Of a stretch of 46,442 nt of DNA, positions 15,561 to 46,442 are shown in pieces. A program made the translations under genes and the position numbers. The stretch is from contig CBDUWU010000002.1 of the NCBI GenBank assembly GCA_965371015.1, positions 1-46,442 on the forward strand, in the 5' to 3' direction. Numbering within the stretch: position 1 is the first letter of the stretch; each line of letters opens with the position of its first letter. This DNA comes from an uncultured bacterium. Lineage in GTDB: Bacteria; Krumholzibacteriota; Krumholzibacteriia; WVZY01; JAKEHA01. Under the pieces are notes generated by a model, which saw only the letters and a program-made list of their open reading frames with translations, ran no database searches and was not told the DNA's origin.

Positions 15561-15563
15561 CGG

Positions 15564-17806: not shown

Positions 17807-17838
17807 CTCGTTCGGGAACGGGCGTCTGCCTCTCCGGC

Positions 17839-18282
17839 TCAGGTCCGGGGCGAGAAATTGGCCTTCCGGATTTCTTCCAGGAGGTCCTTGACCTTTTCCT
17901 CGATTTCGTCGCCGATCCGGCGGAACACCGACAGGGGGCGGCCGATCGGGTCGTCGACGTCCCAGTCGATCAGTCTTCCCGGGAATTCGGCGGGAAACAA
18001 CTCGACGGCCGGGATACCGGTCATCGACACCACCATGTCCATTTCATTGAGTGGTACTTCGTCGAGACCGTTGGACCGCTGATGGGATATGTCGATGCCG
18101 TGCTCTTCCATCATGAGAATCGCGTCCTCGCTGACAACTCCCGTCGGGTGCAGCCCCGCGCTCCACACCTCGACCACGTCGCCGCCTATTTCGCGGGCGA
18201 ACCCTTCGGCCATCGGTGAACGGCACATGTTGCCGATACAGATGAAGAGCACTTTGGTCTTCTGGGTTGCGGGTGACGTCAT
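17839..18282 (-). CDS. low-molecular-weight protein-tyrosine phosphatase
   Basis: P-loop VLFICIGNMCRSPMAEG (CX5R-S) and a DP acid loop (WDVDDPIG). GAGGAA sits upstream of ATG 18282. Confidence 0.85.
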   Translation of the reverse strand: MTSPATQKTKVLFICIGNMCRSPMAEGFAREIGGDVVEVWSAGLHPTGVVSEDAILMMEEHGIDISHQRSNGLDEVPLNEMDMVVSMTGIPAVELFPAEFPGRLIDWDVDDPIGRPLSVFRRIGDEIEEKVKDLLEEIRKANFSPRT

Positions 18283-18380
18283 GGGGTATTCCTCTGGAAT
18301 GATTCTGGCCGCCGGAAGCTTTCCGACCGCAGAAAACTACACAATTTCAACGGGTTTCACAAGTAAAGTTTGTATAAATT

Positions 18381-18420
18381 GCACGAAACGTGCCCCCCGC
18401 GCGCCGGCTCGGCCGGCGCG
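18381..18420 (-). terminator. tandem hairpins after ubiE (terminator candidate)
   Basis: 8-bp GC stem at 18400-18420, plus GCACG-UUU-CGUGC at 18381-18393. An A/U-rich tract follows on the minus strand. Confidence 0.45.
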
Positions 18421-18426
18421 GTGGCG

Positions 18427-19125
18427 TCACTCCTTGATGCCGCGGTAGATGAACGAGACCCCGCCGGCGAGTTTGCGGCGCCGGACATCCGAGAGACCGG
18501 CGTCGGCGAAGAAACGCCGGACTTCATCGTGCGAGGCGAATCCCCGGATCGACGACGACAGGTAGTCGTACGCCTCCTTCGAGCCGGATACGGCCCGGCC
18601 GACCACGGGGAGGACGGTCTTGAGGTAGAGGCGGTAGAGCTGGAGGAAGGCGCCGCTGGTGGGAGGAAAGAACTCGAGCACGAGCAGCCGGCCGCCCGGC
18701 TTGAGCACCCGCGCCATTTCGCGGACTCCGGCCGCGTAGTCGGGGAGGTTTCTCAGCCCGAACGCGATGGTCACAGCGTCGAACGATCCGTCGCCGAACG
18801 GCAGGTCGAGCGCGTCCCCCTCGATGACTTCTATACGCCCTTCGAGTCGCAGCTGCCCGATCTTGTCCCTGGCCACTTCGAGCATTCCGGCGGACCGGTC
18901 GAGGCCGACAATGTGATGCGCCCGCGAGCGGCGTGCAAATTCGATGGCGACGTCGCCGGTCCCGGTGGCGACATCCAATACCTCGCCCCCTGCGTCCACG
19001 CCGGACATGTCCACGAGGGCGCGGCGCCAGCCGCGGTCGACATTGAGGCTGAGGACGTGATTGAGCAGGTCGTAACGGCGCGCGATCGACGAAAACATCC
19101 CGGGTGTCTGTGATTTTTCGACCAT
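18427..19125 (-). CDS. ubiE: demethylmenaquinone / ubiquinone C-methyltransferase
   Basis: MVEKSQTPGMFSSIARRYDLLNHVLS, SAM motif VLDVATGTGD, and FGLRNLPD. Confidence 0.9.
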   Translation of the reverse strand: MVEKSQTPGMFSSIARRYDLLNHVLSLNVDRGWRRALVDMSGVDAGGEVLDVATGTGDVAIEFARRSRAHHIVGLDRSAGMLEVARDKIGQLRLEGRIEVIEGDALDLPFGDGSFDAVTIAFGLRNLPDYAAGVREMARVLKPGGRLLVLEFFPPTSGAFLQLYRLYLKTVLPVVGRAVSGSKEAYDYLSSSIRGFASHDEVRRFFADAGLSDVRRRKLAGGVSFIYRGIKE

Positions 19126-19140
19126 GCCGCCGCCCGCGCT

Positions 19141-20355
19141 CTATTCCGTCGTTTGTTTGAGTTTGTAAACCCGGGTTGCCTCACCGGAGGGGTCGAAATC
19201 GCAGATGTAGAGTTCGCCGTCCTCGTCGACACCGAACGCCGAAATCCTCCCCGGGCTGTCGGCGATATCGATGACGGGCGAAGCGCTCGACCCGTCGTAT
19301 TCGATCCCCCAGATGAGTCCCGTGTTGTAGTCGGCGAACACGTACACGCCCTCGAGCGAGGTGATGGTCGGACCGCGGTAGACGTGGCCGCCGGTCACGG
19401 ATACGTTCCCGTCTGCGTCGTGGGGGTATTCATAAATGGGATTAATCGCCGTTTTGAGCGTGTCGCACATAGGCGAGGGCGCGCCAGGGTCGGTGCCGTC
19501 CGCGTCGTACTCGTGCGCTCCTTCGAAGCAGTCCCACCCGTAGTTGCCGCCGATGTCGATGATATCGATTTCCTCCCACCTCGCCTGTCCGACGTCGCCC
19601 GCGTAAAGCCGGCCGGTGACGGGATCGAAGCTGAACCGCCACGGATTGCGCAGCCCGTACGCGTAGATTTCGGGCCGGTATCCTTTGATGTTAAACACAA
19701 AGGGGTTGGTGTCGGGAATCCCGTAGTTCCCCTGCGAGTTGGAATCGACGTCGAGGCGGAGGATCGTGCCGAACACGTTGGTGAGGTCCTGGGCGTTGTC
19801 GTTGGGGTCGCCGGCGCCGCCGCCGTCGCCAACGGCCACGTACAGGAATCCGTCAGGACCAAAAGCGAGCTGCCCGCCGTTGTGGTTGCCGGCGGTCTTG
19901 GTAAACGTCATGAGCACAGTCTCGGTCGACTGGTCGGTGGAATCGGGGTTGGTGGCGCTCACCTCGAAGCGCGAGAGCCGGTTGTCCCCGCCTGCGACGG
20001 TATAGTACACAAAGAAGCGCCCGTTGGTCGCGTAGTCGGGGTGGAATGCGAGCCCCAGGAGTCCCTGCTCGAGGCCGGCGCTATGGACGTTACCGGATAC
20101 GTCGAGAAAAGTCCTGGCCGCCGCGACGGACGCTTCATTCTCGAAGACTCTCACGGTGCCGCGCCGCTCGACGACGAATACGCGGCCACTGCCGTCGCCG
20201 GCATTCTGGAAGTCGACGGGCTGGACGAACGTGAGGTTCGGATAGGCGGCGACGAGCTGGTAGATGTAGCTGCCCGGAGCGACGGAGTCGTCGTCGCACC
20301 CGGCGGCGAGAGGCAGCGCCGCAAGAACGGCCGCCAGCAGTATTATCTGTTTCAT
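19141..20355 (-). CDS. PQQ-dependent (soluble glucose/sorbosone dehydrogenase-like) beta-propeller sugar dehydrogenase, lipoprotein
   Basis: Start moved to ATG 20355, preceded by GGAGGA. MKQIILLAAVLAALPLAAGC has a lipobox. Also GLLGLAFHPDY, NHNGGQLAFGPDGFLYVAVGDGG and YAYGLRNPWRFSFD. Confidence 0.85.
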   Translation of the reverse strand: MKQIILLAAVLAALPLAAGCDDDSVAPGSYIYQLVAAYPNLTFVQPVDFQNAGDGSGRVFVVERRGTVRVFENEASVAAARTFLDVSGNVHSAGLEQGLLGLAFHPDYATNGRFFVYYTVAGGDNRLSRFEVSATNPDSTDQSTETVLMTFTKTAGNHNGGQLAFGPDGFLYVAVGDGGGAGDPNDNAQDLTNVFGTILRLDVDSNSQGNYGIPDTNPFVFNIKGYRPEIYAYGLRNPWRFSFDPVTGRLYAGDVGQARWEEIDIIDIGGNYGWDCFEGAHEYDADGTDPGAPSPMCDTLKTAINPIYEYPHDADGNVSVTGGHVYRGPTITSLEGVYVFADYNTGLIWGIEYDGSSASPVIDIADSPGRISAFGVDEDGELYICDFDPSGEATRVYKLKQTTE

Positions 20356-30645: not shown

Positions 30646-30712
30646 AATAGTCTCCTCCTGTATGTGGAATTTGTCTCGGGAGCCGTCATTATAATACACT
30701 CGCCGGCCCGTC

Positions 30713-30741
30713 TTGACAGTACGCATTTCAGGAGGTATCGT
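30713..30741 (+). promoter_or_regulatory. sigma70-type promoter candidate for the thi operon (TTGACA-17-TATCGT)
   Basis: TTGACA at 30713-30718, 17-nt spacer, TATCGT at 30736-30741. Confidence 0.45.
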
Positions 30742-30749
30742 AGGAACGA

Positions 30750-30800
30750 GACGGGGGTGCCCGGCCGTCATCCGCCGGGCCGGGCTGAAATCAAACCCAC
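30750..30800 (+). promoter_or_regulatory. THI-box-like element (5' half of a TPP riboswitch aptamer only)
   Basis: GGGGUGC, then a P3-like stem CCCGGCC...GGCCGGG, then CUGAAA (consensus CUGAGA), then ACCC. The ACCUGAUCUGG..GCG..GGGA half is not recognisable before ATG 30820. Confidence 0.3.
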
Positions 30801-30819
30801 CGCGAAATCATTCATACTG

Positions 30820-31971
30820 ATGTATAAAGAAGAAAAAGACCGCGTCGCCATCGTCGGCGGCGGCATCATCGGCCTGGGGCTGGGATGGCAGCTGGCGCGC
30901 CGCGGACGCCCGGTCACTGTGTTCGACAAGGACACCGCCGGACGGGCTGCCAGCTGGGTGGCGGCGGGTATGCTCGCCCCCGTGTCGGAGTTCGACTTCG
31001 AGAACGAAGATTTTCTACGATTCGGGCAGAAGAGTCTGGAACTCTTCCCCCGCTTTCTCGACGAACTGGCACAGGACAGCGGGCGCCGGGTGAAGCTGGA
31101 TACGCGCGGCACGATGATGGTGGGATTTCACCGCGACGATACCGAACGCATCCGCCGTATCTACAATTTCCGCGAACACCGTGGCCTGCCGGTCACGTGG
31201 TTGACGGGCACCGAGGCGAGAGAAATCGAACCCCTCCTCTCCCCCAAAGCCGCCTCGGCGATGTGGATTCCCGAAGACCACCAGGTCGACAACCGCGACG
31301 TGGTCGATGCGTTGAAACTCGCGCTGACCGGCGCGGGCGGCGAGCTGGTCGAGGAAACGGCGGTCAAGGCGATCCGCACGGAGAGAGGACGGTGCACGGG
31401 CGTCGTCACCTCCACCGCCGATCAGGCGGAAAGCCTGATCCACGATGCCGGAACGACGGTGATCGCGGCGGGCTGCTGGTCGGGCCTCATCGAAGGTATC
31501 CCCGAAGAAATCGCCCCCCCCGGGGTGCGCCCGGTCAAGGGGCAGATCGTCTCCCTCCTCACCGACGAGACGTACGAGTTCAAGCGCGTGATCCGCGCGC
31601 CGGACGCTTACATACTGCCGAAAGGCGACGGGCGCCTTCTCATCGGCGCGACGGAAGAGGAGATGGGATTCGACACGACGCCGACGGCGGGCCCTGTGAT
31701 GAGGCTCATCGAACGTGCGTGGGAAGCGGTTCCGTCGATATACGACCTGCCGATCGAGCGCATCGACGCTGGCCTGCGCCCGGGCACCCGGGATCACGAA
31801 CCGCTGATCGGTGAGACGGGAATGGAGGGGCTGGTGTACGCGACGGGACACTACCGGCACGGAATACTGCTGGCGCCGATCACCGCTTATTCGCTGTGCG
31901 ACATGATTGTCGACGGCGCGGTACCGGATGACCTGGCGCCGTTCGCTCCGACGCGTTTTTCGAGGCGATGA
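30820..31971 (+). CDS. thiO: glycine oxidase
   Basis: Start moved to ATG 30820. RVAIVGGGIIGLGLGWQLARRG. DAO fold. Located immediately upstream of thiS and thiG. Confidence 0.88.
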   Translation: MYKEEKDRVAIVGGGIIGLGLGWQLARRGRPVTVFDKDTAGRAASWVAAGMLAPVSEFDFENEDFLRFGQKSLELFPRFLDELAQDSGRRVKLDTRGTMMVGFHRDDTERIRRIYNFREHRGLPVTWLTGTEAREIEPLLSPKAASAMWIPEDHQVDNRDVVDALKLALTGAGGELVEETAVKAIRTERGRCTGVVTSTADQAESLIHDAGTTVIAAGCWSGLIEGIPEEIAPPGVRPVKGQIVSLLTDETYEFKRVIRAPDAYILPKGDGRLLIGATEEEMGFDTTPTAGPVMRLIERAWEAVPSIYDLPIERIDAGLRPGTRDHEPLIGETGMEGLVYATGHYRHGILLAPITAYSLCDMIVDGAVPDDLAPFAPTRFSRR

Positions 31972-32180
31972 ACGACATGGAACTGACGGTCAACGGCACG
32001 CCCCGGACGATCGAAGCGGCGACGGTCGCCGAACTGATGGTCGAGCTGGGCTTCGAGCTCAACGCGCCCGGCATCGCGGCGGCGCTCAACGGCGCGGTGG
32101 TACCGCAGACGGAGTGGGGCTCGGCGAAGCTGGACGACGGCGACACGATCGACATCATCCACGCCGTCCAGGGCGGTTGA
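31968..32180 (+). CDS. thiS: sulfur carrier protein ThiS
   Basis: 70 aa ending ...IIHAVQGG. ATGA overlap with thiO. Confidence 0.9.
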   Translation: MNDMELTVNGTPRTIEAATVAELMVELGFELNAPGIAAALNGAVVPQTEWGSAKLDDGDTIDIIHAVQGG

Positions 32181-32213
32181 TATCTGTCGGCCTTATACGA
32201 TCAAGGAATCAGT

Positions 32214-32990
32214 ATGGACAAGTTCAAGATTGCAGACAGAGAATTCGGCTCGCGGTTGATCGTCGGGACGTCGCGGTATCCCGACCCGCAGACCATGCTC
32301 GACGCCCTCGAAGCCAGCGGGACCGAGATGGTCACCGTCGCCATTCGGCGCGTCAAGCTCGACGACCCCTCCGAAGAGAGCCCCCTGCGGCTGTTGCGCA
32401 AACGCGGCTACTTCATCCTCCCCAACACCGCCGGTTGTTACACCGCCAGGGAAGCCGTGCTCACAGCCCGGCTCGCGCGAGAAGCCCTCGGCGAGAACTG
32501 GATCAAACTCGAGGTCATCGGCGACGACGAGACCCTCTTTCCCGACGTTCCCGAGCTCCTCAAGGCCGCCGAGCAGCTCGTCGCCGAAGGATTCGTCGTG
32601 CTTCCCTACTGCAACGACGACCCCATCTCGTGCAAAAAACTGGCCGGCATCGGATGCGCCGCCGTCATGCCGCTCGGCGCGCCCATCGGCAGTGGAATGG
32701 GCGTTCGCAATCCATACAATCTCCAGATCATCCGGAAAATGGTAGACGTTCCGCTCATCGTCGATGCCGGGGTCGGGACCGCATCCGACGCCGCCATCGC
32801 CATGGAACTCGGCGCCGAGGGAATCCTCCTCAACACCGCTATCGCCCAGGCCAAGCACCCCGTCGACATGGCCCGGGCCATGCGTCTCGGCGTCGAAGCC
32901 GGCAGGTTGGCCTTCCGTGCCGGGCGAATACCCCGTAAACTGTACGCGACTGCGTCGAGCCCCCTGGAAGGCATGATCGGAGGCGATTGA
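32214..32990 (+). CDS. thiG: thiazole synthase
   Basis: [32 protein letters not shown] and [13 protein letters not shown]. Confidence 0.95.
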
Positions 32991-32991
32991 A

Positions 32992-33636
32992 GTGATAGAT
33001 TTCCGCTTTTACCTCGTTACGGACCGCAAGCAATGCGCTCCGCGGTCACTGCAGTCCATGGTCAGGGAGGCGTGCGACGCCGGCGTCAAAGCCGTGCAGT
33101 TGCGCGAAAAAGACCTCGCCCCCAGGGAGGTCGAGGAGTACATCGCACGGCTCCTCGAAATCACACACGACCGGGACACCCGGCTTCTGCTCAATCGCAA
33201 GGAACCCATCCGCGAAGCCGAGGACGCATATCTCGCAGCCAGCCTCACCGTCGACGGATTTCACTTCCCCGAGGGAATGACGTTTCCGCACGAACTCCGC
33301 GCGCGGTTTCCGAAAGTGCTCGTCGGCATGAGCACCCACTCGGCGGGGGCCGCCGTTACCGCCGCGGCGGAAGGCGCCAGCTTTATCACGTTCGGCCCCG
33401 TGTTCGAGACACCGTCCAAAAAGACCTACGGACCGCCGCAGGGACTCGACGCCCTCGCGAAAGTAACGGCGAGTATCACCGTCCCCGTGTTCGCCATCGG
33501 CGGCATCACGCCCGACAATGCGGCCGATTGCATCGCCGCCGGCGCCCACGGAGTGGCCGCCGTCAGCGCCGTAATGACGGCCGAGGACATCGGCAACGTC
33601 GTCGGCCGTTTCCGCTCTGCAATCGGATCGCTGTGA
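32992..33636 (+). CDS. tenI: ThiE paralog lacking the ThiE Mg/PPi motifs; probable TenI-like thiazole tautomerase
   Basis: GTG start. TMP-TENI fold. NRK replaces NDR, GFHFPEG replaces GVHLGxxD, and FGPVFETPSKK resembles TenI. Confidence 0.65.
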   Translation: MIDFRFYLVTDRKQCAPRSLQSMVREACDAGVKAVQLREKDLAPREVEEYIARLLEITHDRDTRLLLNRKEPIREAEDAYLAASLTVDGFHFPEGMTFPHELRARFPKVLVGMSTHSAGAAVTAAAEGASFITFGPVFETPSKKTYGPPQGLDALAKVTASITVPVFAIGGITPDNAADCIAAGAHGVAAVSAVMTAEDIGNVVGRFRSAIGSL

Positions 33637-34286
33637 TTCCCGCGCGTCCCCCGATCGGCCGGCTTCACGTCATCACCGACACCCGCATCCAGGACCGGTT
33701 CGACCACGTCGAGCTCGCGCGCATGTCGGTCGCGGGCGGCGCCACCGTCATCCAGATTCGTGACAAACAGTTGACCGATGCGGAACTCGTGTCCGTAGCG
33801 AAACGCGTTCTTGCCGATTGCCGCGCCGCGGGAGCGTCGCTCATCGTCAACGACCGCATCGAGGTGGCGGCACGGGCGGGGGCCGACGGCGTCCATCTCG
33901 GCCACGATGACGCGCCCATTGCCCAGGCACGGCGAGTGCTCGGCGCCGATGCGGTCATCGGCGGCAGCGCGGGAACGGTGGACGAGGCGGTGGAAGCGGC
34001 CCGGGCCGGCGCCGACTACGTCGGCTTCGGCCACGTATACCCGACCTCGACCAAGAACAAACCGGGGCCGCCCGTGGGGCTCGATGGACTCGCGCTCGCG
34101 TGCTCGGCAATCGAAATTCCCGTCATCGCCATCGGCGGTATTACCGGAGAGTCCGCCGCCGGCGCCCTGGCCGCCGGCGCCTGGGGGGTGGCTGTCGTCG
34201 GCGCCGTCTGCGCCGCCAGCGATCCCGAGGCCGCCGCGCGCGCCCTCGCGTCGTGCATCGCCCAGGGCCACGGAGACGCATCATGA
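33633..34286 (+). CDS. thiE: thiamine-phosphate synthase
   Basis: GTG 33633 overlaps the upstream stop (GTGA). [35 protein letters not shown] and [10 protein letters not shown]. The ORF-track start at 33033 is rejected. Confidence 0.85.
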
Positions 34287-35098
34287 CAAAAATTAAGCAG
34301 GCGCTCACCATCGCCGGCTCCGACTCCGGAGGGGGCGCCGGCATCCAGGCCGATATCAAGGCGATGCAGGCCAACGGCGTTTTCGCCGCATCCGTTGTCA
34401 CCGCGGTGACCGCGCAGAACACGGTCGAGGTACGCAGCGCCGTCGAGTTGCCCCTCGAATCGATTCGCGCCCAGCTCGAAGCGGTATTCGACGACTTCGA
34501 CATCACCGCCGCCAAAACGGGCATGCTGGCATCGACGGGCGTCATCGAAACCGTCGCTTCGTTTCTCACCGAAACCGGTTTTCGGGACCTCGTCGTAGAC
34601 CCCGTAATGATCTCGAAGAGCGGCTATTCCCTCCTCGCCGCCGACGCGGTCACGGCACTCCGCGACCAACTTCTGCCGCTCGCGCTCGTCGCCACTCCCA
34701 ACCTCCACGAAGCCTCGCTGCTCGCTGGAATCGAAATCGCCGGACTCGACGACATGAGAGAGGCGGCGAGGATCATTCACGGTTCGGGTCCGCGAAACGT
34801 GATCGTCAAGGGCGGACACGCCGACTTCAGCCCGGGGACCGACGTGCTGTTCGACGGCAGAGAGTTCCATGAATTCGCGGCGGACGCAGTGTTCGACAGG
34901 AGCGTCCACGGGACCGGGTGCACGTTTTCAGCCGCGATCACCGCCCGCCTGGCGCTGGGGGAACCCCTCACCACCGCCGTCGCCAACGCCAAGACGTACG
35001 TCACCTGCACCATCGAGCACCAACTCGAGATCGGCGCCGGCCACGGCCCCGGGCATCACTTCTATTTCCTCGACTCGTCGGATTTTCAGAAGAACTGA
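34283..35098 (+). CDS. thiD: hydroxymethylpyrimidine / phosphomethylpyrimidine kinase
   Basis: ATG 34283 overlaps the thiE stop (ATGA). [26 protein letters not shown] and [10 protein letters not shown]. Confidence 0.9.
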
Positions 35099-37894: not shown

Positions 37895-38065
37895 CCGGGA
37901 CTCCGTCCTGGACCGGATAGCCAGAAGCACCGGACACAGGGACCCCGGCTTCGGCTCGAATCGCGGAAACCCCGTGCCTGTCCGCGAATCACCAGCTTAT
38001 CGTGGCCGCATGGCTTCTCATCCGCTATAATAGAGCACGTACTTCCCCTGCGATTGCGCCGTGCC

Positions 38066-40621
38066 ATGCGTCATTGTATCGCCATCATCTGTCTGCTAAC
38101 CGTCGTGATCCCACCGGCTTCGGCGCGCGGTGAAGCCGCGTCCGATTCGCTCTACCGCGCCAACCACCCGCGTCTGCTCCTTACCCGCGGGGAACTCCCC
38201 GCGCTGCGGGCGAAGGTCCGCGACGGGACCCGCGACGGAGAGGCGTACCTCTACGCCCGCCACCTGATGGACGACGTGTTTCCCGGATACGACAACGACA
38301 AGATGCTGTCCCACTCCTACGGCGTGGGGACGTTCCCCACCGTGTGCATGCTCGCCTGGCTCGAAGCGGTCCCCGACACGGCGGCGATCAACCTGGGGCG
38401 CCGCCTGGTGGATCACACCATCGCCGCCTACGGACCCGACGACAACGTCTACTACGCGCCACTTCGCCTCCGCCTCCTCGCGCTCGGATACGACTCGTTC
38501 TACCAGGACGCGACGGCGCCCGAGCGCGCCGCCGTGCGTGCTGAAATGGAAGCCTACATCGACACCATGGTCACAACGCGCACGTACGAGTATTGGAAGT
38601 ATCGCCCTTACCTCGCCAACATCTCCACGATGATCGCGTCGGCGCTCGGGCTCGCCGCGATCTGCCTCGACGGCGAAACCGACCCCGCCCGCGTCGAGGC
38701 GGCGCTGTCGGCGTCGTACGAGTACATCGACCAGTGGCTCGAGTACCAGCTCGACCCCGGCGGCTCCTACAAGGAAGGCGCCATGTACGCCGGCTGGTGC
38801 ATGCGCAACCTCTGCTACTACTTCTGGGCGCGCAAGCGCTTCGACGGGTTCGACTACTCGAACGAGGACCGGATCCGCAACATCGAGCGCTGGGTCGCCC
38901 ACACACTGTTGCCTATCGGCAACGCGTGGGTCAATAACGTTGGCGACGCGACGACGCTCAACTTCCCCTGGTCGCGGCACCACACCTACTTCGACTGGGC
39001 GCAGTGGGAGTGGAACAGCGGGTTGTCGGCGTGGCTGTGGGAATATATCCTGGGGTGGTATGGACACGATTCGGGCGAGCTCGCCGACCCGACCGCCACC
39101 ATGCTGTGGCACCGTACCCTCGTCCCCGTCGACCCGGAGTCGATACTCCCCCCCACGAGGGTGCTGTGGGCGGACCGCGGCCAGTACTATTTCCGCACGG
39201 GGTGGCCGTTGTACGGATCTTCGTCGGATGACATCGTACTGAGCTTCTACTCGGGGAAATTCCACGGCGGGCATTCGCAGGAGGACCAGAACAACTTCAC
39301 CCTCTACGGTTACCTTTCGCGGTTCGTCATCGACCACGGGTATGGCGAGCCAGGGCGCACGAGCGCGGCGCACAACATGGTGTTCATCGACGGCGCCGGC
39401 CAGCATCACTCGGGCGCATCGGTCGGCACCGACGGAAGGATCGCCGAATACCTTCCGGGTGGACTCGCCGACTACATCATGGGCGACGCGACGGCGGCGT
39501 ATACCACCTATAGCGAGTTCAACCGGCCCGGATATCCCTTTCCCGAGAACGACTGGTCGTACGGATACCGGGGCGCCAATCCCGTCCGTTACGCCCACCG
39601 CCGGCTCCTCGTCGTCCACGGCCGGGAGGCGCTTCCGTACGTGATCCTGATGGACGACATCGACAAGGACGGCGCCACGCACGACTACGAGTGGCGGCTC
39701 CACACCGACGCGTCCAATACGGTGGACGTGTCGCAAAATCCGGTAGTTATCGGCGGCCCCGGCGGGTGGATGGACGTCCACGTCGTTGCGCCCGCGTTCG
39801 GATCGCTGACGGCGGAAACGTCGGTGTTCGACAACGGCCACGAAGACCCCGACGCCACGGTGATCTCTCTTTCCACGACGGATGACGCGGCGCATTTCAT
39901 TTTTTTACTGCTGATGCGAGACGGCAACACCCCGGTCCTCACTCCGGAGATCACGAACGCCTCGTGGGGCGAGGCGTTCGTGATCGAAAGAGCCGACAGC
40001 GTCGTCGATTCGTTTGCGCGCAACCACTCGGGCGAACGGATCGGGTTCCACGATTTCGTGACCGACGCCACCATGACGCTGACGCGGAGCGCGTCACGGT
40101 CGCTGACCAGTTTCGTCATAACAGGTGCGACCGTGCTGAAGTGGGGCAAATTTCCCTGGGTGACGGTCGCCGACGGCCCGCTGGGTGTGTCGTACGGCGG
40201 CGGCGAGATCCACATCGACCGGCGCGATGCGGCATTCCGCATCTATGCGCCCGGGGGCGAAACAGTCCTCTACCAGGGCTCGCCCGTGCGTACGCGGCGC
40301 GACGGCGACTACGTGGTGTCGGCGGAGTACGAGGCGTCATCGGTCCCCGGAGTAACGATCACGGCGTATCCCAATCCGTTCAACACCGACACCCGCATCA
40401 AAGTCAACATGGCGCGTGCCGGACACCTGAAAGTCGAGATATTCGACGCGGCGGGCCGGCGCGTCCGGAAGCTGTGGGAAGGCGAGGCAGACTTCGGGGA
40501 GCGGATCGTGGTCTGGGACGGCTGGAGCGACAAGGGCCGGCCCGTCGCCAGCGGGGTTTACCTGGTGCGCGCGGTCTCGCCGGATGGCGTTGCTTCCACC
40601 AAACTCGTTCGCATCAGATAA
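38066..40621 (+). CDS. heparinase II/III-like polysaccharide lyase with C-terminal T9SS sorting domain
   Basis: ATG 38066 with signal peptide MRHCIAIICLLTVVIPPASA. GGHSQEDQNNFTLYGY...IDHGYGE...AHNMVFIDGAGQ. The C-terminal 88 aa are ITAYPNPFNTDTRIKV...GVYLVRAV...KLVRIR. Confidence 0.85.
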   Translation: MRHCIAIICLLTVVIPPASARGEAASDSLYRANHPRLLLTRGELPALRAKVRDGTRDGEAYLYARHLMDDVFPGYDNDKMLSHSYGVGTFPTVCMLAWLEAVPDTAAINLGRRLVDHTIAAYGPDDNVYYAPLRLRLLALGYDSFYQDATAPERAAVRAEMEAYIDTMVTTRTYEYWKYRPYLANISTMIASALGLAAICLDGETDPARVEAALSASYEYIDQWLEYQLDPGGSYKEGAMYAGWCMRNLCYYFWARKRFDGFDYSNEDRIRNIERWVAHTLLPIGNAWVNNVGDATTLNFPWSRHHTYFDWAQWEWNSGLSAWLWEYILGWYGHDSGELADPTATMLWHRTLVPVDPESILPPTRVLWADRGQYYFRTGWPLYGSSSDDIVLSFYSGKFHGGHSQEDQNNFTLYGYLSRFVIDHGYGEPGRTSAAHNMVFIDGAGQHHSGASVGTDGRIAEYLPGGLADYIMGDATAAYTTYSEFNRPGYPFPENDWSYGYRGANPVRYAHRRLLVVHGREALPYVILMDDIDKDGATHDYEWRLHTDASNTVDVSQNPVVIGGPGGWMDVHVVAPAFGSLTAETSVFDNGHEDPDATVISLSTTDDAAHFIFLLLMRDGNTPVLTPEITNASWGEAFVIERADSVVDSFARNHSGERIGFHDFVTDATMTLTRSASRSLTSFVITGATVLKWGKFPWVTVADGPLGVSYGGGEIHIDRRDAAFRIYAPGGETVLYQGSPVRTRRDGDYVVSAEYEASSVPGVTITAYPNPFNTDTRIKVNMARAGHLKVEIFDAAGRRVRKLWEGEADFGERIVVWDGWSDKGRPVASGVYLVRAVSPDGVASTKLVRIR

Positions 40622-40644: not shown

Positions 40645-41496
40645 ATGGCCAACTGCTTTTTCGTCAGCGATCTGCACGGCAAGCCGCACCGATACGAGCG
40701 GCTGTTTGAAGCCATCGGGGCCGAAATCCCGTCTGCCATCTTCATCGGGGGAGACCTGTTCCCCCACATGGCCGGTCACGAGGGCGTCCCGTCGGATTTT
40801 CTCGGTGAGTTCCTCGGTCCGCTCCTGGAAAAAACCAGACAGCAGCTCAAGGATCGGTACCCGACCGTGTTCGTGATTCTCGGAAACGACGACACGAAGA
40901 GTGAAGAGGCCACCGTCAAGACGATTGCCGACCGCGGTCTGTGGCACTACGCCCACCGGCGGCGATACGAGTGGGGACGGCACCAGGTCTATGGATATGC
41001 CTGCGTCCCGCCGTCGCCGTTTCTGCTGAAGGACTGGGAAAAGTACGACGTATCGAGGTATACGCCGCACGGCAGTGTTTCACCCGAAGAGGGATACCGC
41101 AGCGTGCCCGTCGACCCGAGCGATATCCGCCACGCCACCATCGAACAGGATCTCGAAGAACTGGCGGGTACGGACGACGTTACGAACGCCCTGTTTCTCT
41201 TCCACACCCCCCCGCACGAAACTCGCCTCGACCGGGCCGCACTCGACGGCAAGATGATCGACCACGTTCCGTTCGACGTGCACGTGGGCAGCATCGCCGT
41301 GCGCCGCTTCATCGAAGCAAGGCAACCTCTGATCACACTCCACGGCCATATCCACGAGTCTACGCGCCTGACGGGCGAGTGGCGCGACAGAATCGGCCGC
41401 ACCCATTCGTTCAACGCGGCACACGACGGTCCGGAGCTCTCTCTTATTCGTTTTGATCCGAGTGACCCCGCCGGGGCAGAGCGGGAATTGTTGTAG
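40645..41496 (+). CDS. calcineurin-like metallophosphoesterase
   Basis: ATG 40645. FFVSDLHG, GGDLF, LGNDD, FHTPPH and LHGHIHE. The ORF-track start at 39964 is rejected. Confidence 0.85.
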   Translation: MANCFFVSDLHGKPHRYERLFEAIGAEIPSAIFIGGDLFPHMAGHEGVPSDFLGEFLGPLLEKTRQQLKDRYPTVFVILGNDDTKSEEATVKTIADRGLWHYAHRRRYEWGRHQVYGYACVPPSPFLLKDWEKYDVSRYTPHGSVSPEEGYRSVPVDPSDIRHATIEQDLEELAGTDDVTNALFLFHTPPHETRLDRAALDGKMIDHVPFDVHVGSIAVRRFIEARQPLITLHGHIHESTRLTGEWRDRIGRTHSFNAAHDGPELSLIRFDPSDPAGAERELL

Positions 41497-41511: not shown

Positions 41512-44500
41512 TCAACCGTCCCCACCCGGCTCGAGGAACCGGGCCGCGTCGGTGACCGCCCCGATCTTGCAGGCGTAGCTGGTCTGCTTTTCGATATCAT
41601 CATCGGTCACATAGTGCACGTCCAGCAACCCGTCCGAACGGTACCCCGTCCTCAGGTAGTTGAACTCGGCGAGGGACCGGCTCCAGCCATCGAGCCACAG
41701 CGACAGCTTCTCACGCTGCTCTTCGCTGCCATCGATGTGGACGATGAGATCGAGGTCGCTTCCCGGCCCGGCCGTGGCGTTTTTGACGCTCCCGAACACG
41801 TAGACCCCTTTGACGCCAAAAACGTCCCGATCCAGCATCCGCGCCATTTTTTTGGCCATACGCAAACGCCACCGCCAGTGATCTTCGGACCGGCTTTCCT
41901 TCCGGAGTTGTCCGGCGGGTTGTTCATCAACAGTCTGCACGCCGGGCTGTGAAAGAACACCAACGGCCTCGTCCAGATCGGCATTGAGGAGAATCTTCAG
42001 TATCTGCCCGTCCGCAACATCGGGGATATCGATGACGTGGATAACGTCACTTAGGCGCTCGTACTCCGGCAACAAATCGGCCAGGATGTTCTTTTTTCGT
42101 CGCAAAAACCCTTCGTTGAACACCGTGTCGTCATCGTCGGGATAAAGCGGGAGATAGCGGATATCCGCTTCTACGAGGTCCTGAAAAAAGTGGGTGCCGA
42201 ATGATAACTCGGGCACGTAGTTTTCTTTTTGACGCGCGACCTCGATCAGGGCACAGGTATTGTTGATGTCAGAGTAAGTGACCCCCACACCCAGCTTGAT
42301 ATCACCTCGACTACCCCAACGCCCCGGACCGATCAGCACAAACTGACGTTTGGGAAGTATCTTGTTGAGCCGGCTCACTGCACGCCCGACGTCCTTGAGG
42401 TCTCCCAGTTCCGGTAGTTCCCCGTACCGCTCCGGATCCACGTAGACGACATGGGAGACGTCTGGGACCCGACCGTTCGAAATATATCGGTTGGCGGTAA
42501 AGATCACCCTTTCCCGGGGGAGGTCCCGCGGGATCGGAGCGGGTTCGAAATCGGGAGACGCGCTCTGCGCCCGGCACTGCAGGAGATACAGGTTCTGTCC
42601 ATCGGACGCAAACTCGATGTCGACCGGGTATCCGGTACTCTCTCCGAGAAAATCCAGAACGGCCTTGACCCTGGAAACGAATTCACCGTCCTCGATCAAC
42701 CCCTGGAAAGTGAACGCGAGATCGTCGGAATCCCAGTCGGGCTCCAGCCCTCTCGGCCGCCGGATCTGCTCGCGCGTCACGATCGAAACGAGATCACGAA
42801 TCGCCGGGTAGTCTTCCCCCGCCTCCTTGAGCAACTTTCGGACTTCAATCGTAACGAAGGTGTTTTGCTCGAGGTCAATCACGTCGATCATTTTGGGAGA
42901 GTAGCGCATGACTTCGTCGGGTGTGACGTTGACGCGGAGTCCGGGCTGACCCGGCGCCAGAAGAACGGGATAGTCGTCGCTGATCCGGTCGACGGCCCTC
43001 GTCCCCAGCCCGGGAACCATGCGGACGAGCCCATCGTCGCGCTGGATCCGCGGCGACCAGCGAAATTCGTTGCGCGAAAAAGCCACTCCGGCATAGGCCG
43101 GCAGGAAGTAGCGGCCCACGCGCCGTCCGACCACCTCCTGGATCATCACCGCCATTTCCTCGTGAACGTCAAGAAGGCCGCGTTCGGCCCTGTATTCTAT
43201 CGGGTCCGGCCCGAAAATCGACGCGTACACCTCGGCGATCGCGTCCTGGAGCGCTTCGAGCCGTTCGCGTTTACTTCCCTGGTTGGCAACAAAAAGGCTC
43301 TTGTACTTGCCCGAGAACGCCGCTCCCGTCTGATCTTCCAGGAGACTGGAACTGCGCACCACGAGGGGCTTGTCCTCGAAGTCATCCAGCGCAACCGCCA
43401 ATCCGTTGACCATTTCGGCCGGGAATCGGGAGTTCTTGAATACCTGTACGATCCGCGGGTAGTCGCGACGGATCCGTTCGACATCGGCGTACTTGTGGTC
43501 GTAGATATCGTCGAGATTGTTGTGGCGAATGAATTCGAGCTGGCTGTCAGAACTGACGTACCACGTCCGGGGGTTTTTGATCTGATCGAACATCTCGCGA
43601 TTTCCCAGGGAATTCTTCAAAAGAGTGCAGGCAAGAAACAACCCGGTACTCTTGCCGCCCAGGCGCCCGTGGCTCTGCGCGGGGTAGACGATGTGATTGA
43701 GCAATTCGTGAAAATCGGAGACCCGCACCTGGTTCTTCATAATATTGAGAAATTCCAGGTCGCTGCTGAAGAATCGGCGGAGCAGCGAGACGTGGAGGCT
43801 CTTCTGGAGAGCCGGAGGAAGCTCGTCTTCCTCGATCTCTGAAGACTTGAACCGGTCGAGGGCCGCGGCGACGTCGGAAAGGCTGCTGTGGGGCGTTTCG
43901 AGCGTCTCTATCAGCCCGCTGGCTTTGTCCTCTTCAATCCACGCGCGGATATTGGCGATCATTTCCTCGTCGCTGCAATGCTCCGCCGCGATGGTGAACG
44001 TTTTGTCGGCGAGGGCCGCGACGTCGCGCAGGTCGGATCGGCGGGCCGGCCGGTTCTCGTCCTCCTCCCCCGCCGTCTCGACGTCCTCGGAGACGAATTC
44101 GCGCAAGAGATCTCCTGCGTCTCCGGCTCCCGTCCAGCAGAGATAGTTGATCATCTTGCGGGTGATTCGGGCGAGCAGGGCGTGATCCGTTCTCCTGAGG
44201 AACGCCATAATGACCTGCCATTCGCTGCTCGACGCGTTCGACGCTTTTTCGACTGCGTTCGTCCAGTTTTCGTGATCGGAACGCAGTCGCTTCTGGAGAA
44301 CGTACAGGCCGATGCGCTCGGCTATCGTGTTTATCAGCCGACGTTCTTCTTTTAGAAACGGGCCCTCGTCGGCCGCAGGCCGCTGTTCTCCGTAGCAAAC
44401 CACCACCTCCCCGATAACACGTTGCTCGAACTCGATGTCGGCCTGCTGGCGCCACTCGGTCTCCTCGCAACCGTCACTTTCGTACTTGTCCTCCTCGATC

Positions 44501-44694
44501 CTGATCCTCGCCTGGCACACGTCGGGATACTGCCATCCCGGCGGCAGCGCGGCGGCCAGCTCGTTCATGATCTCGTCCTCGGGGCGGTCGAGCTGACTCA
44601 ACAATTCGTCGACCCGGTAGAGGCAATTCAGCTCTTTGGCGCGTTCCTGGAGGGAATGCATTATTTCGCCGAGAGGGTTTTCCTGTTCCTTCAT
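41512..44694 (-). CDS. multidomain protein: GAF-like sensor, helical linker, PPDK_N (PEP/pyruvate-binding ATP-grasp), GRWGS/HFF C-terminal module and Pol-beta-type nucleotidyltransferase
   Basis: ATG 44694 lies 2 nt after the upstream stop (TGAAGATG); 1060 aa. KELNCLYRVDEL...GPFLKEERRLINTIA spans aa about 10-135. GGKSTGL, VVRSSSLLED, MAVMIQEVV, VDIEFA and LYLLQCRA mark the ATP-grasp. Then LIGPGRWGS...FGTHFF. C-terminal VYVFGSVKNATAGPGSDLDLIVHI. Confidence 0.8.
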   Translation of the reverse strand: MKEQENPLGEIMHSLQERAKELNCLYRVDELLSQLDRPEDEIMNELAAALPPGWQYPDVCQARIRIEEDKYESDGCEETEWRQQADIEFEQRVIGEVVVCYGEQRPAADEGPFLKEERRLINTIAERIGLYVLQKRLRSDHENWTNAVEKASNASSSEWQVIMAFLRRTDHALLARITRKMINYLCWTGAGDAGDLLREFVSEDVETAGEEDENRPARRSDLRDVAALADKTFTIAAEHCSDEEMIANIRAWIEEDKASGLIETLETPHSSLSDVAAALDRFKSSEIEEDELPPALQKSLHVSLLRRFFSSDLEFLNIMKNQVRVSDFHELLNHIVYPAQSHGRLGGKSTGLFLACTLLKNSLGNREMFDQIKNPRTWYVSSDSQLEFIRHNNLDDIYDHKYADVERIRRDYPRIVQVFKNSRFPAEMVNGLAVALDDFEDKPLVVRSSSLLEDQTGAAFSGKYKSLFVANQGSKRERLEALQDAIAEVYASIFGPDPIEYRAERGLLDVHEEMAVMIQEVVGRRVGRYFLPAYAGVAFSRNEFRWSPRIQRDDGLVRMVPGLGTRAVDRISDDYPVLLAPGQPGLRVNVTPDEVMRYSPKMIDVIDLEQNTFVTIEVRKLLKEAGEDYPAIRDLVSIVTREQIRRPRGLEPDWDSDDLAFTFQGLIEDGEFVSRVKAVLDFLGESTGYPVDIEFASDGQNLYLLQCRAQSASPDFEPAPIPRDLPRERVIFTANRYISNGRVPDVSHVVYVDPERYGELPELGDLKDVGRAVSRLNKILPKRQFVLIGPGRWGSRGDIKLGVGVTYSDINNTCALIEVARQKENYVPELSFGTHFFQDLVEADIRYLPLYPDDDDTVFNEGFLRRKKNILADLLPEYERLSDVIHVIDIPDVADGQILKILLNADLDEAVGVLSQPGVQTVDEQPAGQLRKESRSEDHWRWRLRMAKKMARMLDRDVFGVKGVYVFGSVKNATAGPGSDLDLIVHIDGSEEQREKLSLWLDGWSRSLAEFNYLRTGYRSDGLLDVHYVTDDDIEKQTSYACKIGAVTDAARFLEPGGDG

Positions 44695-44696
44695 CT

Positions 44697-46430
44697 TCAG
44701 TCCTTTTTGCCGTAACAGACGGTCCCTCGCCCGGAGCGTCCGTCCACCTTGACCAGCAGCGGTTGATCGAGCTCGACGTGACAAACGTAATCCGTTTCCC
44801 GGACGACGCGTTGGCGGGACAGCCAGTCCCACGCGATGGGGGTGGCACTCTCGTGGTGCACCGTAAAGTAACTCACGCGGAAACTCGATATATTGTGAAA
44901 GAAATGTGCGCCCTGGCTGGGTTCGACGGTCATTCCTTCCAGTGTTGATTCCACAATGACTCTGGCTCCGCTGATCTGCCCCCAGTTGACCGGTATGCCC
45001 AGCCACGGATCGGAGCTGCCCCATCTTCCGAATCCTATCAACATGTAGGGTCTTTTCTGGTCGAACAGTCCGCGGTTGAAGGTCTCTATTTCGCCAACGA
45101 TTACCGGCGTGAGCCGCGCCTCGAACACATCCGGTTTGACGAATACAACGTCCCGAATCGCATTCTCGACACCGTTTCCCATCACACGGTTCGACGCCAG
45201 CAGAAGGTCGCCGGTCCCTTCAACGATTTCCGGCACTTCGACACGTTGCTTCGACACCATCATGGGGCGTACCTGCAGGAAGGCAAGCCGGGCGTCTCCA
45301 TCTTCCCGACGTGGAAACGTCATGGCAAACTCCATCTCCACCGCACTGCCCGTCGCGTTTCCGAACACGTCGAGAAGTTTTTTGATCACCGCATTCACGG
45401 GCCAGGTCTGCAAATCAAGCAACGGGGCAAAGTCCAGCACGCGCGCCCCCTTGATGCCCACACCGGGCGAGAGCCGGTCGCGCCCCGGATCGTAAGTGGA
45501 CGCGACGAACCGCAGCGTGTCGTCGTAGTCGGCATCCTCGAGGCCGCTTTCAGCGAGGTATTCCGTTTCTATCGTCGGATCAAAAGCGGGGGGCTTGCCC
45601 AGGTTGACAGCCCAGAAACGAAGCTGCGTGTTCTTCATCAGCTCACCCGTCGTCGCAAACGGCGGCCGCGACCGGGGATGCGCGGGTGAATACGCCCACG
45701 ACACCCCCCCGTCGACGATCGTCTTCCCCAGGCCGAGGGCGAGATTGACCACGCCCTCTTCCGGTTTCGCGGAGCCCGTTCGATAGTAGTTGTACGACCG
45801 GCACACGCCGGAGAGTTGGGGGTAAAAACGATTTCCGAACTGTTCACCCACGACTTCCTGGATAACGACCGCCATTTTCTCGTCGCGCACCGTCTTGTCC
45901 GTCGCCTGGATATAACTCGCCGCGGCCCGGGAGAATGTCGACGCATAGACAAATTTGATCGCTTCGACAAGGCTCTTGAACCGGGCGTCAGGGTCGGCCT
46001 GGTTGTTCGGAATCATCTTGGTTTCGTAAATACCCGCGAAGGGATGCGCCAGTGCATCTTCAAGAAGGCTGGATGAACGGAGCGCGAGCGGCCGACCTTT
46101 GGTCTGTTCGACCAGGGCACGCAGGTCACCGACGTGCTCGACGGGCAGGTCCGCTTTCTGGAAGGCAAGCGCGATCCGCTCGTCCGCCACTCCGGAGAGC
46201 GCGATCTCGTACAACCCGTTCCGCTCCATGAAGGCGTCGAACAAGTCCGTCGTGAGCACGGTGGACGTGGGGATGTCGATCCGGATTCCCTGAAATTCGC
46301 CGGCCTCGAAGTGTTCGTTGAGTACGTCGCGCCCCTGGACGAGCCCGGTCGCTTTGCCACCCAGCCCACCATCCCCGATGCGCATGAACGGCTCGCCCGA
46401 TTCGAAGAACTTCCGGGCGAACCGCGGCAC
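44697..46430 (-). CDS. PPDK_N (PEP/pyruvate-binding ATP-grasp) domain protein with GRWGS/HFF C-terminal module; 5' end may continue past the window
   Basis: GTG 46430 is taken as the start, but the frame stays open to 46442. GGKATGL, ALRSSSLLED, MAVVIQEVV, VEMEFA and LAFLQVRPM. Then LIGFGRWGS...QGAHFF. Confidence 0.8.
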   Translation of the reverse strand: MPRFARKFFESGEPFMRIGDGGLGGKATGLVQGRDVLNEHFEAGEFQGIRIDIPTSTVLTTDLFDAFMERNGLYEIALSGVADERIALAFQKADLPVEHVGDLRALVEQTKGRPLALRSSSLLEDALAHPFAGIYETKMIPNNQADPDARFKSLVEAIKFVYASTFSRAAASYIQATDKTVRDEKMAVVIQEVVGEQFGNRFYPQLSGVCRSYNYYRTGSAKPEEGVVNLALGLGKTIVDGGVSWAYSPAHPRSRPPFATTGELMKNTQLRFWAVNLGKPPAFDPTIETEYLAESGLEDADYDDTLRFVASTYDPGRDRLSPGVGIKGARVLDFAPLLDLQTWPVNAVIKKLLDVFGNATGSAVEMEFAMTFPRREDGDARLAFLQVRPMMVSKQRVEVPEIVEGTGDLLLASNRVMGNGVENAIRDVVFVKPDVFEARLTPVIVGEIETFNRGLFDQKRPYMLIGFGRWGSSDPWLGIPVNWGQISGARVIVESTLEGMTVEPSQGAHFFHNISSFRVSYFTVHHESATPIAWDWLSRQRVVRETDYVCHVELDQPLLVKVDGRSGRGTVCYGKKD

Positions 46431-46442
46431 CGGCGTCTTGTT

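Follow-up and report, generated by a model that had tools for sequence, protein, structure and literature searches.

A widespread pair of PPDK-type ATP-grasp proteins that lacks the phosphohistidine swivel domain and is linked to glutamate dehydrogenase genes in related loci

PEP synthase, pyruvate phosphate dikinase (PPDK; PDB 1KBL, 1DIK, 2OLS) and rifampin phosphotransferase (Rph; PDB 5HV1, 5HV3, 5HV6, 5FBS) share an N-terminal ATP-grasp nucleotide-binding domain (PPDK_N, PF01326), in which conserved lysine, arginine, E-x-E and Q-x-R residues act as nucleotide and Mg ligands. All characterised members are defined by a mobile phosphohistidine (swivel) domain (PF00391, GGxTSH motif), and the acceptor substrate is bound by the PEP/pyruvate TIM barrel (PF02896) or by the rifampin-binding domain. 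In the split dikinases (phenylphosphate synthase, AcvAB, CreHI) two adjacent genes encode products that act together, the ATP-grasp domain works as a separate polypeptide, and the PPDK_N subunit transfers pyrophosphate from MgATP to a His on the partner subunit (His569 of Protein 1; bioRxiv 10.1101/2022.04.28.489975). Glutamate dehydrogenase (GDH) is one of the two entry points of ammonium into biomass and the main exit point for amino-acid nitrogen. Glutamine synthetase, a central enzyme of ammonium assimilation, is reversibly modified by GlnE adenylyltransferase and GlnD uridylyltransferase, large multidomain enzymes with a Pol-beta-type nucleotidyltransferase and sensory input, while we know of no equivalent described for bacterial GDH.

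A sequence-only reading of a 46,442-nucleotide stretch from an uncultured bacterium of the Krumholzibacteriota (contig CBDUWU010000002.1, assembly GCA_965371015.1; hereafter the window) had proposed two translationally coupled PPDK_N paralogs, P1 and P2, without a swivel-His domain and with a shared, uncharacterised C-terminal module. This observation was confirmed. The ORFs are located where they had been placed (Table 1), the junction reads TGAagATG, FGRWGS of P1 lies at 45015-45032 and GRWGS of P2 was likewise placed correctly. P1 and P2 align at 29% identity over 528 residues, through the C-terminal module (E 6e-36). The start of P1 has to be corrected, as a relative that is 94% identical in DNA to the window (locus L001) starts at an ATG 10 codons upstream of the GTG, and homologs of P1 are 585-589 aa long.

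Table 1. Coordinates of the gene pair, its domains and the neighbouring gene in the window.
Feature	Position	Strand	Residues or size	Characteristics
P1 gene	44697..46442	-	577 aa from GTG 46430	5' end cut by the window; true ATG about 18 nt (about 6 codons) beyond the window end
P1 PPDK_N ATP-grasp domain	45237..46364	-	23-398	GGKATGL, RSSSLLED, VEMEFA and LQVRP motifs
P1 C-terminal module	44700..45233	-	400-577	Alpha/beta domain (model) without database match; GRWGS 45015-45029, SQGAHFF 44898-44918
P2 gene	41512..44694	-	1060 aa from ATG 44694	Starts 2 nt after the P1 stop codon
P2 N-terminal domain	44275..44694	-	1-140	Invariant ERAKELxCLY motif; possibly a GAF-like sensor, not established
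P2 linker region	43675..44274	-	141-340	Unknown fold
P2 PPDK_N ATP-grasp domain	42550..43665	-	344-715
P2 C-terminal module	41980..42531	-	722-905	GRWGS 42310-42324, SFGTHFF 42184-42204
P2 Pol-beta-type nucleotidyltransferase domain	41515..41907	-	930-1060	GS...DLD...D motifs
Metallophosphoesterase gene	40645..41496	+	283 aa	Convergent with P2; conserved neighbour

To test whether both proteins contain PF01326 but lack PF00391, as the sequence-only reading had predicted, they were searched against Pfam. PPDK_N was detected in P1 (E 1.4e-34) and in P2 (E 1e-54), whereas neither PF00391 nor PF02896 was found even at E<=1, and no GG.TSH-type motif occurs in any frame of the window. The ATP-grasp domain of P1 (AF2 model, pLDDT 86) matched that of Rph in a Foldseek search (5HV3, E 3e-14; TM 0.67 over the isolated ATP domain), and the HpeI structure and PPDK were matched as well. 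Rph was also the only significant match among PDB sequences, and the PDB sequence matches were confined to ATP-grasp residues of about 84-207. K26, R118, E365, E367, Q386 and R388 of P1 are invariant in 28 homologs, as are K348, R447, D692, E694, Q706 and R708 in the P2 family, indicating that the ATP-grasp domains are catalytically intact.

The C-terminal module, for which profile searches and structure prediction had been named as tests, was analyzed next. Modeled alone, the P1 module gave a confident AF2 prediction (pLDDT 90.8), but it matched nothing in Pfam, NCBIfam or PDB sequences and no PDB fold (best Foldseek E 0.02, TM below 0.3). A module profile retrieved 2314 clusters at 50% identity. 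Of 150 family representatives, 136 carry both GRWG[ST] and SxGxHFF, 37 or 40 residues apart, and the module was found only fused to PPDK_N (all 8 representatives tested). We suspected that FGRWGSSDPWLGIP was a degenerate swivel motif (GGRTSHAAIxARExGIP) with Ser in place of the catalytic His. However, hhalign of the module against a genuine PPDK swivel domain gave a probability of 0.04, no swivel-domain protein appeared among the top 50 listed Foldseek matches, and HMMER yielded only a meaningless -4 bit stretch against Rph residues 763-785, so that this idea was rejected.

P2 contains two further regions that had been overlooked. Its C-terminus is a nucleotidyltransferase domain (PF01909, PF18765 and PF22600, E 1e-6 to 1e-8; PF01909 32.7 bits against a cut-off of 21), in which G968, S969, D980 and D1025 are invariant and D982 nearly so. 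The domain aligns weakly with the active-site region of kanamycin nucleotidyltransferase (E 0.02) and is present in 60 of 62 P2 orthologs, being absent from two Gemmatimonadota orthologs. The N-terminal region of roughly 340 residues may be a sensor, but this assignment rests on very weak GAF hits to its first domain (2 of 15 members at E 0.08), and profile searches of that domain against the PDB found nothing. The linker region had no Pfam hit, while the corresponding region of paralogs with a receiver domain gave weak DUF5752 hits.

Conservation of the two-gene arrangement across phyla had also been named as a test. In related loci from about ten phyla, P2 follows P1 in 62 of 63 loci that have room for it, which is far beyond chance. 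The gap between the genes has a median of 16 nt, the genes often overlap, and P1-P2 fusion proteins of about 1630 aa exist, supporting the heteromer that the sequence-only reading had considered plausible. A GDH gene lies directly upstream of P1 in 70 of 74 loci (median gap 110 nt), and the same order was observed in the Pfam-annotated contigs L001, L002, L086 and L087, whereas L088 has P2 but no P1 after the GDH gene. As the window ends inside the 5' end of P1, an adjacent GDH (ELFV) gene is out of sight here, which leaves this point undecided for the present genome, although in L001 the GDH stop codon lies 60 nt before the P1 start. On the other side, a metallophosphoesterase gene (Pfam Metallophos, E 1.8e-9), also overlooked before, follows P2 in 43 of 59 loci, is convergent in 41 and is absent in 16. 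The cluster occurs in at least 586 species-level genomes from soil, sediment and aquatic lineages, comprising Acidobacteriota, Planctomycetota, Gemmatimonadota, Ignavibacteriota/Bacteroidota, Calditrichota and several candidate phyla.

The link to GDH recurs independently. Paralogs of about 990 aa with a receiver domain, PPDK_N and the module follow a second GDH in the related loci L004, L014, L044, L057 and L087, and in L087 this GDH is of the NADP-GdhA class. In L014 the phosphoesterase gene is co-directional with the operon of GDH and receiver-domain paralog. A 1403-aa ORF in L057 was checked as a possible GDH to ATP-grasp fusion, but it is an over-extended call without an ELFV domain. A divergent split version follows a GDH in L073. 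In human gut Bacteroidales (Parabacteroides and Phocaeicola) such paralogs lie upstream of and divergent from gdhA, not downstream as the title of Baggio and Morrison (1996) says, and Prevotella sp. oral taxon 299 has the paralog with no GDH gene within 8 kb. Neighbouring 'nucleotidyltransferase' and 'RapZ' genes in Parabacteroides were first read as a writer/eraser set, but Pfam shows NTP_transferase and APH plus RapZ_C, an AmgK/MurU-like combination, and they are probably unrelated. A homolog search with the Parabacteroides protein returned only near-identical sequences and did not reach B. thetaiotaomicron, for which an assignment of the gdh genes to BT1970 and BT1973 was not confirmed (BT1971 is a catalase).

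Taken together, the interpretation given in the sequence-only reading was supported, although it was incomplete: neither a swivel nor a known substrate-binding domain was detected in the C-terminal region, the pair was not assignable to a characterised family, and the pairing is conserved, so that none of the findings that it had named as contradicting it was obtained. Its functional idea, ATP-dependent phosphorylation of a protein or small molecule, remains inference. No published characterisation or definition of this family was found in the literature. We tentatively propose that P1 and P2 are two subunits of a conserved enzyme functionally tied to the upstream GDH, which would use ATP in response to a metabolic signal to covalently modify GDH, by phosphorylation and/or nucleotidylylation, or otherwise switch its activity. 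The new domain would replace the swivel-His domain, either as a phospho-carrier (candidates H509/H835 or S472/S795) or as the target-docking domain, and the phosphoesterase would reverse the modification. Whereas the domain anatomy, the absence of the swivel domain, the conservation of the pair, the fusions and the GDH linkage in related loci are shown by our data, the chemistry, the target and the role of the phosphoesterase are deduced only. Dedicated partners for two different GDH classes argue for a protein-specific relationship, and the receiver domains and the conserved P2 N-terminus are in line with signal input. There is, however, no direct evidence of any modification of GDH, only the genomic association with GDH is shown, adjacency could reflect a shared pathway or co-regulation, and in most loci the phosphoesterase gene is not co-transcribed with the pair. 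Furthermore, P1 and P2 are 55-60% identical across phyla, which is more typical of core metabolic enzymes than of regulators. The absence of the phosphoesterase gene in 16 of 59 loci, the lack of P1 in L088, the lack of the nucleotidyltransferase domain in two Gemmatimonadota orthologs, the paralog without a nearby GDH gene in Prevotella sp. oral taxon 299, the upstream, divergent position in Parabacteroides and Phocaeicola and the weak support for a sensor in P2 also count against the proposal.

A serious rival, which we regard as somewhat less likely, is a small-molecule enzyme in a pathway shared with GDH that performs an ATP-dependent phosphorylation, pyrophosphorylation or ligation of glutamate, 2-oxoglutarate or a derivative, with the module as substrate-binding domain and the nucleotidyltransferase and phosphoesterase processing the product. 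All characterised PPDK_N enzymes ultimately phosphorylate small molecules, for example the split phenylphosphate and acetovanillone synthases (bioRxiv 10.1101/2022.04.28.489975), and the very high sequence conservation and the operon with a central metabolic enzyme would fit. In the module model the conserved motifs sit in loops following beta-strands, which we infer to be possible phosphate-binding loops. On the other hand, no known metabolite or pathway fits, no other pathway genes are conserved around the cluster in L002 and L086-L088, a shared metabolite would not require separate paralogs for two unrelated GDH classes, and receiver and sensor-type domains are unusual on pathway enzymes. 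It is unlikely that the pair makes a nucleotide-derived messenger reporting nitrogen or carbon status, with the ATP-grasp pyrophosphoryl-transfer step and the nucleotidyltransferase acting together and the enzyme co-expressed with GDH without acting on it. Input domains are present, and nucleotidyltransferase and phosphoesterase could serve synthesis and degradation, but P1 and the receiver-domain paralogs lack a nucleotidyltransferase domain, no receptor or effector gene is conserved nearby in L086-L088, and the tight and repeated GDH adjacency would be left unexplained.

A divergent PEP synthase, PPDK or Rph-type dikinase with a known role such as gluconeogenesis or xenobiotic inactivation is very unlikely and is refuted at the level of domain content. 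Although database names include 'pyruvate, phosphate dikinase' and 'pyruvate, water dikinase' and the best structural matches are Rph and PPDK, these matches cover the ATP-grasp domain only, NCBIfam equivalog scores are 9-52 bits against cut-offs of 456-1350 (for example 52 against 883), and a genuine PPDK coexists with the cluster in L025. A toxin-antitoxin or anti-phage module built around the MNT-like nucleotidyltransferase is the least likely and was rejected. The weak hits of this domain to the PADLOC candidate system PDC-S09 (E 2e-5) and to the MntA antitoxin model (E 8e-4; 19 bits against a cut-off of 60) cover only 35 residues of the generic motif, P1 gave no PADLOC hit, no HEPN domain appeared in the annotated neighbours (L002, L086-L088), and the context is housekeeping with synteny conserved across phyla.

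If the proposal is correct, which is possible but doubtful on present evidence, the cluster and its receiver-domain paralogs would be a previously unrecognised and widespread system for post-translational control of GDH, the counterpart of GlnE/GlnD for glutamine synthetase, in which a new fold has replaced the swivel-His carrier of a dikinase-type ATP-grasp domain. It could also be the long-unidentified 'trans-acting gene' behind the reported modulation of GDH activity in Bacteroides. It would further show that the PPDK-type ATP-grasp domain can work without the swivel domain, and it adds a confidently modeled domain with no structural relative in the PDB. Even if the target proves to be a metabolite, a new ATP-dependent reaction attached to glutamate or 2-oxoglutarate metabolism would be significant.

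The resemblance to GlnE and GlnD is a functional analogy only, as there is no sequence relationship beyond the generic nucleotidyltransferase motif, GlnE and GlnD have no ATP-grasp domain, and GDH as the target is unproven. With kanamycin nucleotidyltransferase ANT(4') and MntA, the P2 C-terminus shares the GS-x(9-10)-D-x-D active-site motif, but the similarity is marginal, the domain is fused to a 900-residue ATP-grasp protein, and there is no HEPN or aminoglycoside context. As in the split dikinases, two adjacent genes are present, and a phosphatase gene also lies in the AcvAB cluster. In those systems the partner subunit carries the catalytic His, whereas here both subunits are ATP-grasp paralogs with the same new module, and no PF00391 gene lies within 8-10 kb in L002, L086, L087 or L088. 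PEP synthase and PPDK share the ATP-grasp domain with P1 and P2, which have neither the phosphohistidine domain nor the PEP/pyruvate-binding barrel and score more than tenfold below the NCBIfam equivalog cut-offs. Rph, the best fold match, passes phosphate through a C-terminal swivel-His domain and has a rifampin-binding domain, while P1 and P2 have neither, carry the GRWGS/HFF module instead and, in related loci, sit in a GDH operon.

Two co-directional open reading frames, encoding P1 and P2, were identified on the minus strand, and the junction between them reads gac TGA ag ATG, as had been reported in the sequence-only reading. To test the proposal, made beforehand, that both proteins carry a PPDK_N domain but no swivel-His domain, they were searched against Pfam. 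PPDK_N (PF01326) was found in P1 at residues 23-398 (E 1.4e-34) and in P2 at residues 344-715 (E 1e-54), while at E<=1 neither a PEP-utilizers swivel domain (PF00391) nor a PEP/pyruvate-binding barrel was obtained. NCBIfam hits to PEP synthase, PPDK, rifampin phosphotransferase and the PigC/RedH ligases cover only the ATP-grasp part and score 9-52 bits against cut-offs of 456-1350. Hits among PDB sequences are likewise limited to the ATP domain of Listeria rifampin phosphotransferase. P1 and P2 are paralogs that share 29% identity over 528 residues, running through the C-terminal module, and the GRWGS motifs lie exactly where they had been placed from the sequence alone. The observation of this gene pair therefore holds, although two corrections apply. 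The P1 reading frame is open to the window end, and since a 94%-identical relative (L001) starts at an ATG 10 codons upstream of the GTG, about 6 codons of P1 are missing from the window. Furthermore, P2 contains more than had been seen, namely a C-terminal Pol-beta-type nucleotidyltransferase domain (PF01909, PF22600, PF18765; E 1e-6 to 1e-8) and a conserved N-terminal region of about 340 residues.

Coordinates of the genes and loci described in the text, in the window and in related loci (L numbers)
Sequence	Position	Strand	Feature
Window	44697..46430	minus	P1, 577 aa from a GTG
Window	41512..44694	minus	P2, 1060 aa
Window	40645-41496		Metallophosphoesterase gene
Window	38054-40621	plus	855-aa protein with heparinase II/III-like and FlgD Ig-like C-terminal domains
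Window	30664-35098	plus	Thiamine biosynthesis block
L087	12607-17021		Second GDH gene and receiver-domain paralog
L014	15868-20239		Second GDH gene and receiver-domain paralog
L083 (Parabacteroides distasonis)	5106-9590		Receiver-PPDK_N-module gene divergent to gdhA
L085 (Phocaeicola massiliensis)	6188-10707		Receiver-PPDK_N-module gene divergent to gdhA
L088	6621-11186		GDH gene followed directly by a P2-type gene (1061 aa)
L073	3509-8106		GDH gene followed by a 551-aa P1 relative and a 479-aa protein
L086 (Planctomycetes-related contig)	1-19177		gdh-P1-P2-(287 aa) unit with its flanks
L002	16370-19048		892-aa protein after the metallophosphoesterase gene

To characterize the C-terminal module, its sequences from 14 P1-type and 14 P2-type proteins were aligned. 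The columns invariant across both families are G-N-G, V..V.P, L.G.GRWGS, LG, E494, S505-x-G507-x-H509-F-F, Y521 and one Gly (P1 numbering). Profile comparison and structure prediction of this region had been named in advance as a way to reveal a hidden swivel or known substrate-binding domain. A profile of the alignment found nothing significant among PDB sequences (best E 0.15). AlphaFold2 gave confident models for full-length P1 (pLDDT 86.4, pTM 0.88) and for the module alone (pLDDT 90.8, pTM 0.89), the latter being predicted as a beta-beta-beta-alpha-beta-loop-beta-alpha-beta alpha/beta core followed by a small beta-sheet. In this model the GRWGS and SxGxHFF motifs lie in loops that follow beta-strands, and we infer that these may be phosphate-binding loops. 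The model coordinates themselves were not inspected. Foldseek with full-length P1 retrieved the ATP-grasp domains of rifampin phosphotransferase (E 3e-14), HpeI and PPDK, whereas with the module alone no match was found (best E 0.02, TM below 0.3), and no swivel-domain protein was among the top 50 listed. We also considered that GRWGS..LGIP might be a decayed GGxTSH..GIP swivel motif, but this was not supported by hhalign (probability 0.04). An exhaustive profile search of 1.84 billion representative proteins identified 2314 clusters with the module. All eight that were checked carry PPDK_N directly upstream, and 136 of the 150 best representatives have both GRWG[ST] and SxGxHFF, spaced 37 or 40 residues apart. 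The module is therefore a family-specific domain without a Pfam or NCBIfam model, which is predicted to fold confidently and was never seen apart from this ATP-grasp domain.

P1 and P2 each have thousands of homologs at 55-78% identity, which are named only 'PEP/pyruvate-binding domain-containing protein', 'pyruvate, water dikinase' or 'predicted nucleotidyltransferase'. In a scan of one genome per species, at least 586 species with a P1 relative were found, the best 80 of which come from Acidobacteriota, Planctomycetota, Gemmatimonadota, Ignavibacteriota/Bacteroidota, Calditrichota, Zixibacteria, Eisenbacteria, Krumholzibacteriota and others. Cultivable carriers include Melioribacter, Ignavibacterium, Caldithrix and an Acidobacterium. 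Whether the two-gene arrangement is conserved across phyla had been posed beforehand as a question that could refute the reading. In these loci P2 follows P1 in 62 of 63 cases with room for it, with a median gap of 16 nt and an overlap of the genes in 11. P2 keeps the nucleotidyltransferase domain in 60 of 62; in two Gemmatimonadota loci (L032 and L037) the P2 orthologs match only to about residue 914 and gave no hit to this domain, which is therefore not universal. Proteins of about 1630 aa are P1-P2 fusions, of which one (P0168) was verified and seven others of similar length appear among the best 120 hits, supporting a physical complex. The ATP-grasp residues K26/K348, R118/R447, E365-x-E367/D692-x-E694 and Q386-x-R388/Q706-x-R708 (P1/P2) are invariant in both families. 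In PPDK these are the nucleotide and Mg ligands, so that both subunits look catalytically competent.

The decisive finding came from the genomic context. As the window ends at the 5' end of P1, the upstream gene could not be seen in the sequence-only reading. In L001, which represents the same or a sister population, a gene for a 428-aa Glu/Leu/Phe/Val dehydrogenase (ELFV; GDH) ends 60 nt before P1, and across the related loci a GDH gene sits directly upstream and co-directional in 70 of 74 (median gap 110 nt). Pfam-annotated contigs from unrelated phyla show ELFV, then P1, then P2, with otherwise unrelated flanks. In L086 the unit is flanked by genes for RadC, a Cdc6-like AAA protein, a DUF87 protein and a resolvase/recombinase, and the cluster may travel on a mobile island in some genomes. 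In L088 no P1 is present at the locus; P1 may therefore be dispensable, or encoded elsewhere, in some lineages. A metallophosphoesterase gene (Pfam E 1.8e-9) follows P2 in 43 of 59 loci and is convergent in 41. Just after this gene, L002 (a related locus) encodes a protein with CoA_binding, Succ_CoA_lig, ATP-grasp_5 and Acetyltransf domains, a domain set that resembles Pat-type protein acetyltransferases but is not conserved in other loci. The rest of the window is ordinary chromosome, comprising an AMP-binding enzyme, a prolyl oligopeptidase and the thiamine block, in which genes for a DAO-family FAD oxidoreductase (possibly ThiO), a TMP-TENI thiamine-phosphate synthase and a phosphomethylpyrimidine kinase were found; these are ordinary housekeeping genes. 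The heparinase-like protein has an N-terminus that looks like a signal peptide by eye, suggesting that it is secreted, and appears unrelated to the finding.

The link to GDH recurs in paralogs. A roughly 990-aa architecture (receiver domain, linker, PPDK_N, module) follows a second GDH in the related loci L004, L014, L044, L057 and L087. In L087 that GDH is an NADP-GdhA equivalog, whereas the P1/P2-linked GDH is of the roughly 425-aa type, and in L014 the second operon runs into the same phosphoesterase gene that converges on P2. In L073 the P1 relative that follows the GDH gene is Pfam-negative, is 25% identical to P1 residues 7-494 and lacks both GRWGS and HFF, and the next protein resembles the linker region of the receiver-domain paralogs; this looks like a degenerate split version of the system. 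In gut Bacteroidales (P. distasonis and P. massiliensis) a 984-aa receiver-PPDK_N-module gene is divergently adjacent to gdhA, and a second NADP-GDH gene lies a few kb away. Prevotella sp. oral taxon 299, in contrast, has the paralog with no nearby gdh.

Taken together, the analysis itself establishes two ATP-grasp subunits that are translationally coupled and in some organisms fused, without a phosphohistidine swivel domain in cis or encoded nearby, and a new conserved C-terminal domain with an invariant His and an invariant Ser/Thr. It further establishes a nucleotidyltransferase in P2 with an intact GS/DxD/D motif, input-type domains (receivers in the paralogs and a conserved ERAKELxCLY domain in P2 with only weak GAF hints), and a genomic link to GDH that is strict and repeated. 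The sequence-only reading of a coupled ATP-grasp pair that lacks the swivel-His domain and carries an uncharacterised module is thus supported, though incomplete. How the system works, on the other hand, is inferred. In characterised PPDK_N enzymes the ATP-grasp domain pyrophosphorylates a His, which can sit on a separate polypeptide, as in phenylphosphate synthase and AcvAB. Here the new module probably takes over that role, either as carrier, with H509/H835 or S472/S795 (P1/P2) as candidate residues, or as the domain that docks the acceptor.

As two different GDH classes each have a dedicated paralog and the architecture is that of a signalling enzyme, we tentatively favour GDH itself as the acceptor or regulatory target, with the nucleotidyltransferase as a second modifying activity and the phosphoesterase as the eraser. 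The main rival, which we consider less likely but serious, is a small-molecule reaction on glutamate, 2-oxoglutarate or a derivative, and it is this rival that the unusually high sequence conservation favours. The only experimental hint found is the title of Baggio and Morrison 1996, reportedly on trans-acting genes that affect Bacteroides GDH activity, with a 3-kb trans-acting fragment, to which the Bacteroidales loci may relate. However, in the two loci examined the paralog lies upstream of and divergent from gdhA, and we regard this as a lead, not as evidence. In a 2D-DIGE table of Bacteroides fragilis (PMC4539542), NAD(P)H-dependent GDH was identified in three separate gel spots (9, 10 and 11), which would be compatible with charge or mass isoforms but is not evidence of modification.

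No description of this family, its module or its GDH linkage was found in the literature. The system is widespread, strongly conserved, structurally unprecedented in part and directly testable, while its function is inferred; that it represents a new GDH control system is possible, but less likely than not. The pair works like, and shares an ATP domain with, the PEP-utilising dikinases, but two of their three defining features, the swivel-His domain and the acceptor domain, are lacking. It also lacks the defining feature of the split dikinases, a His-bearing partner subunit.
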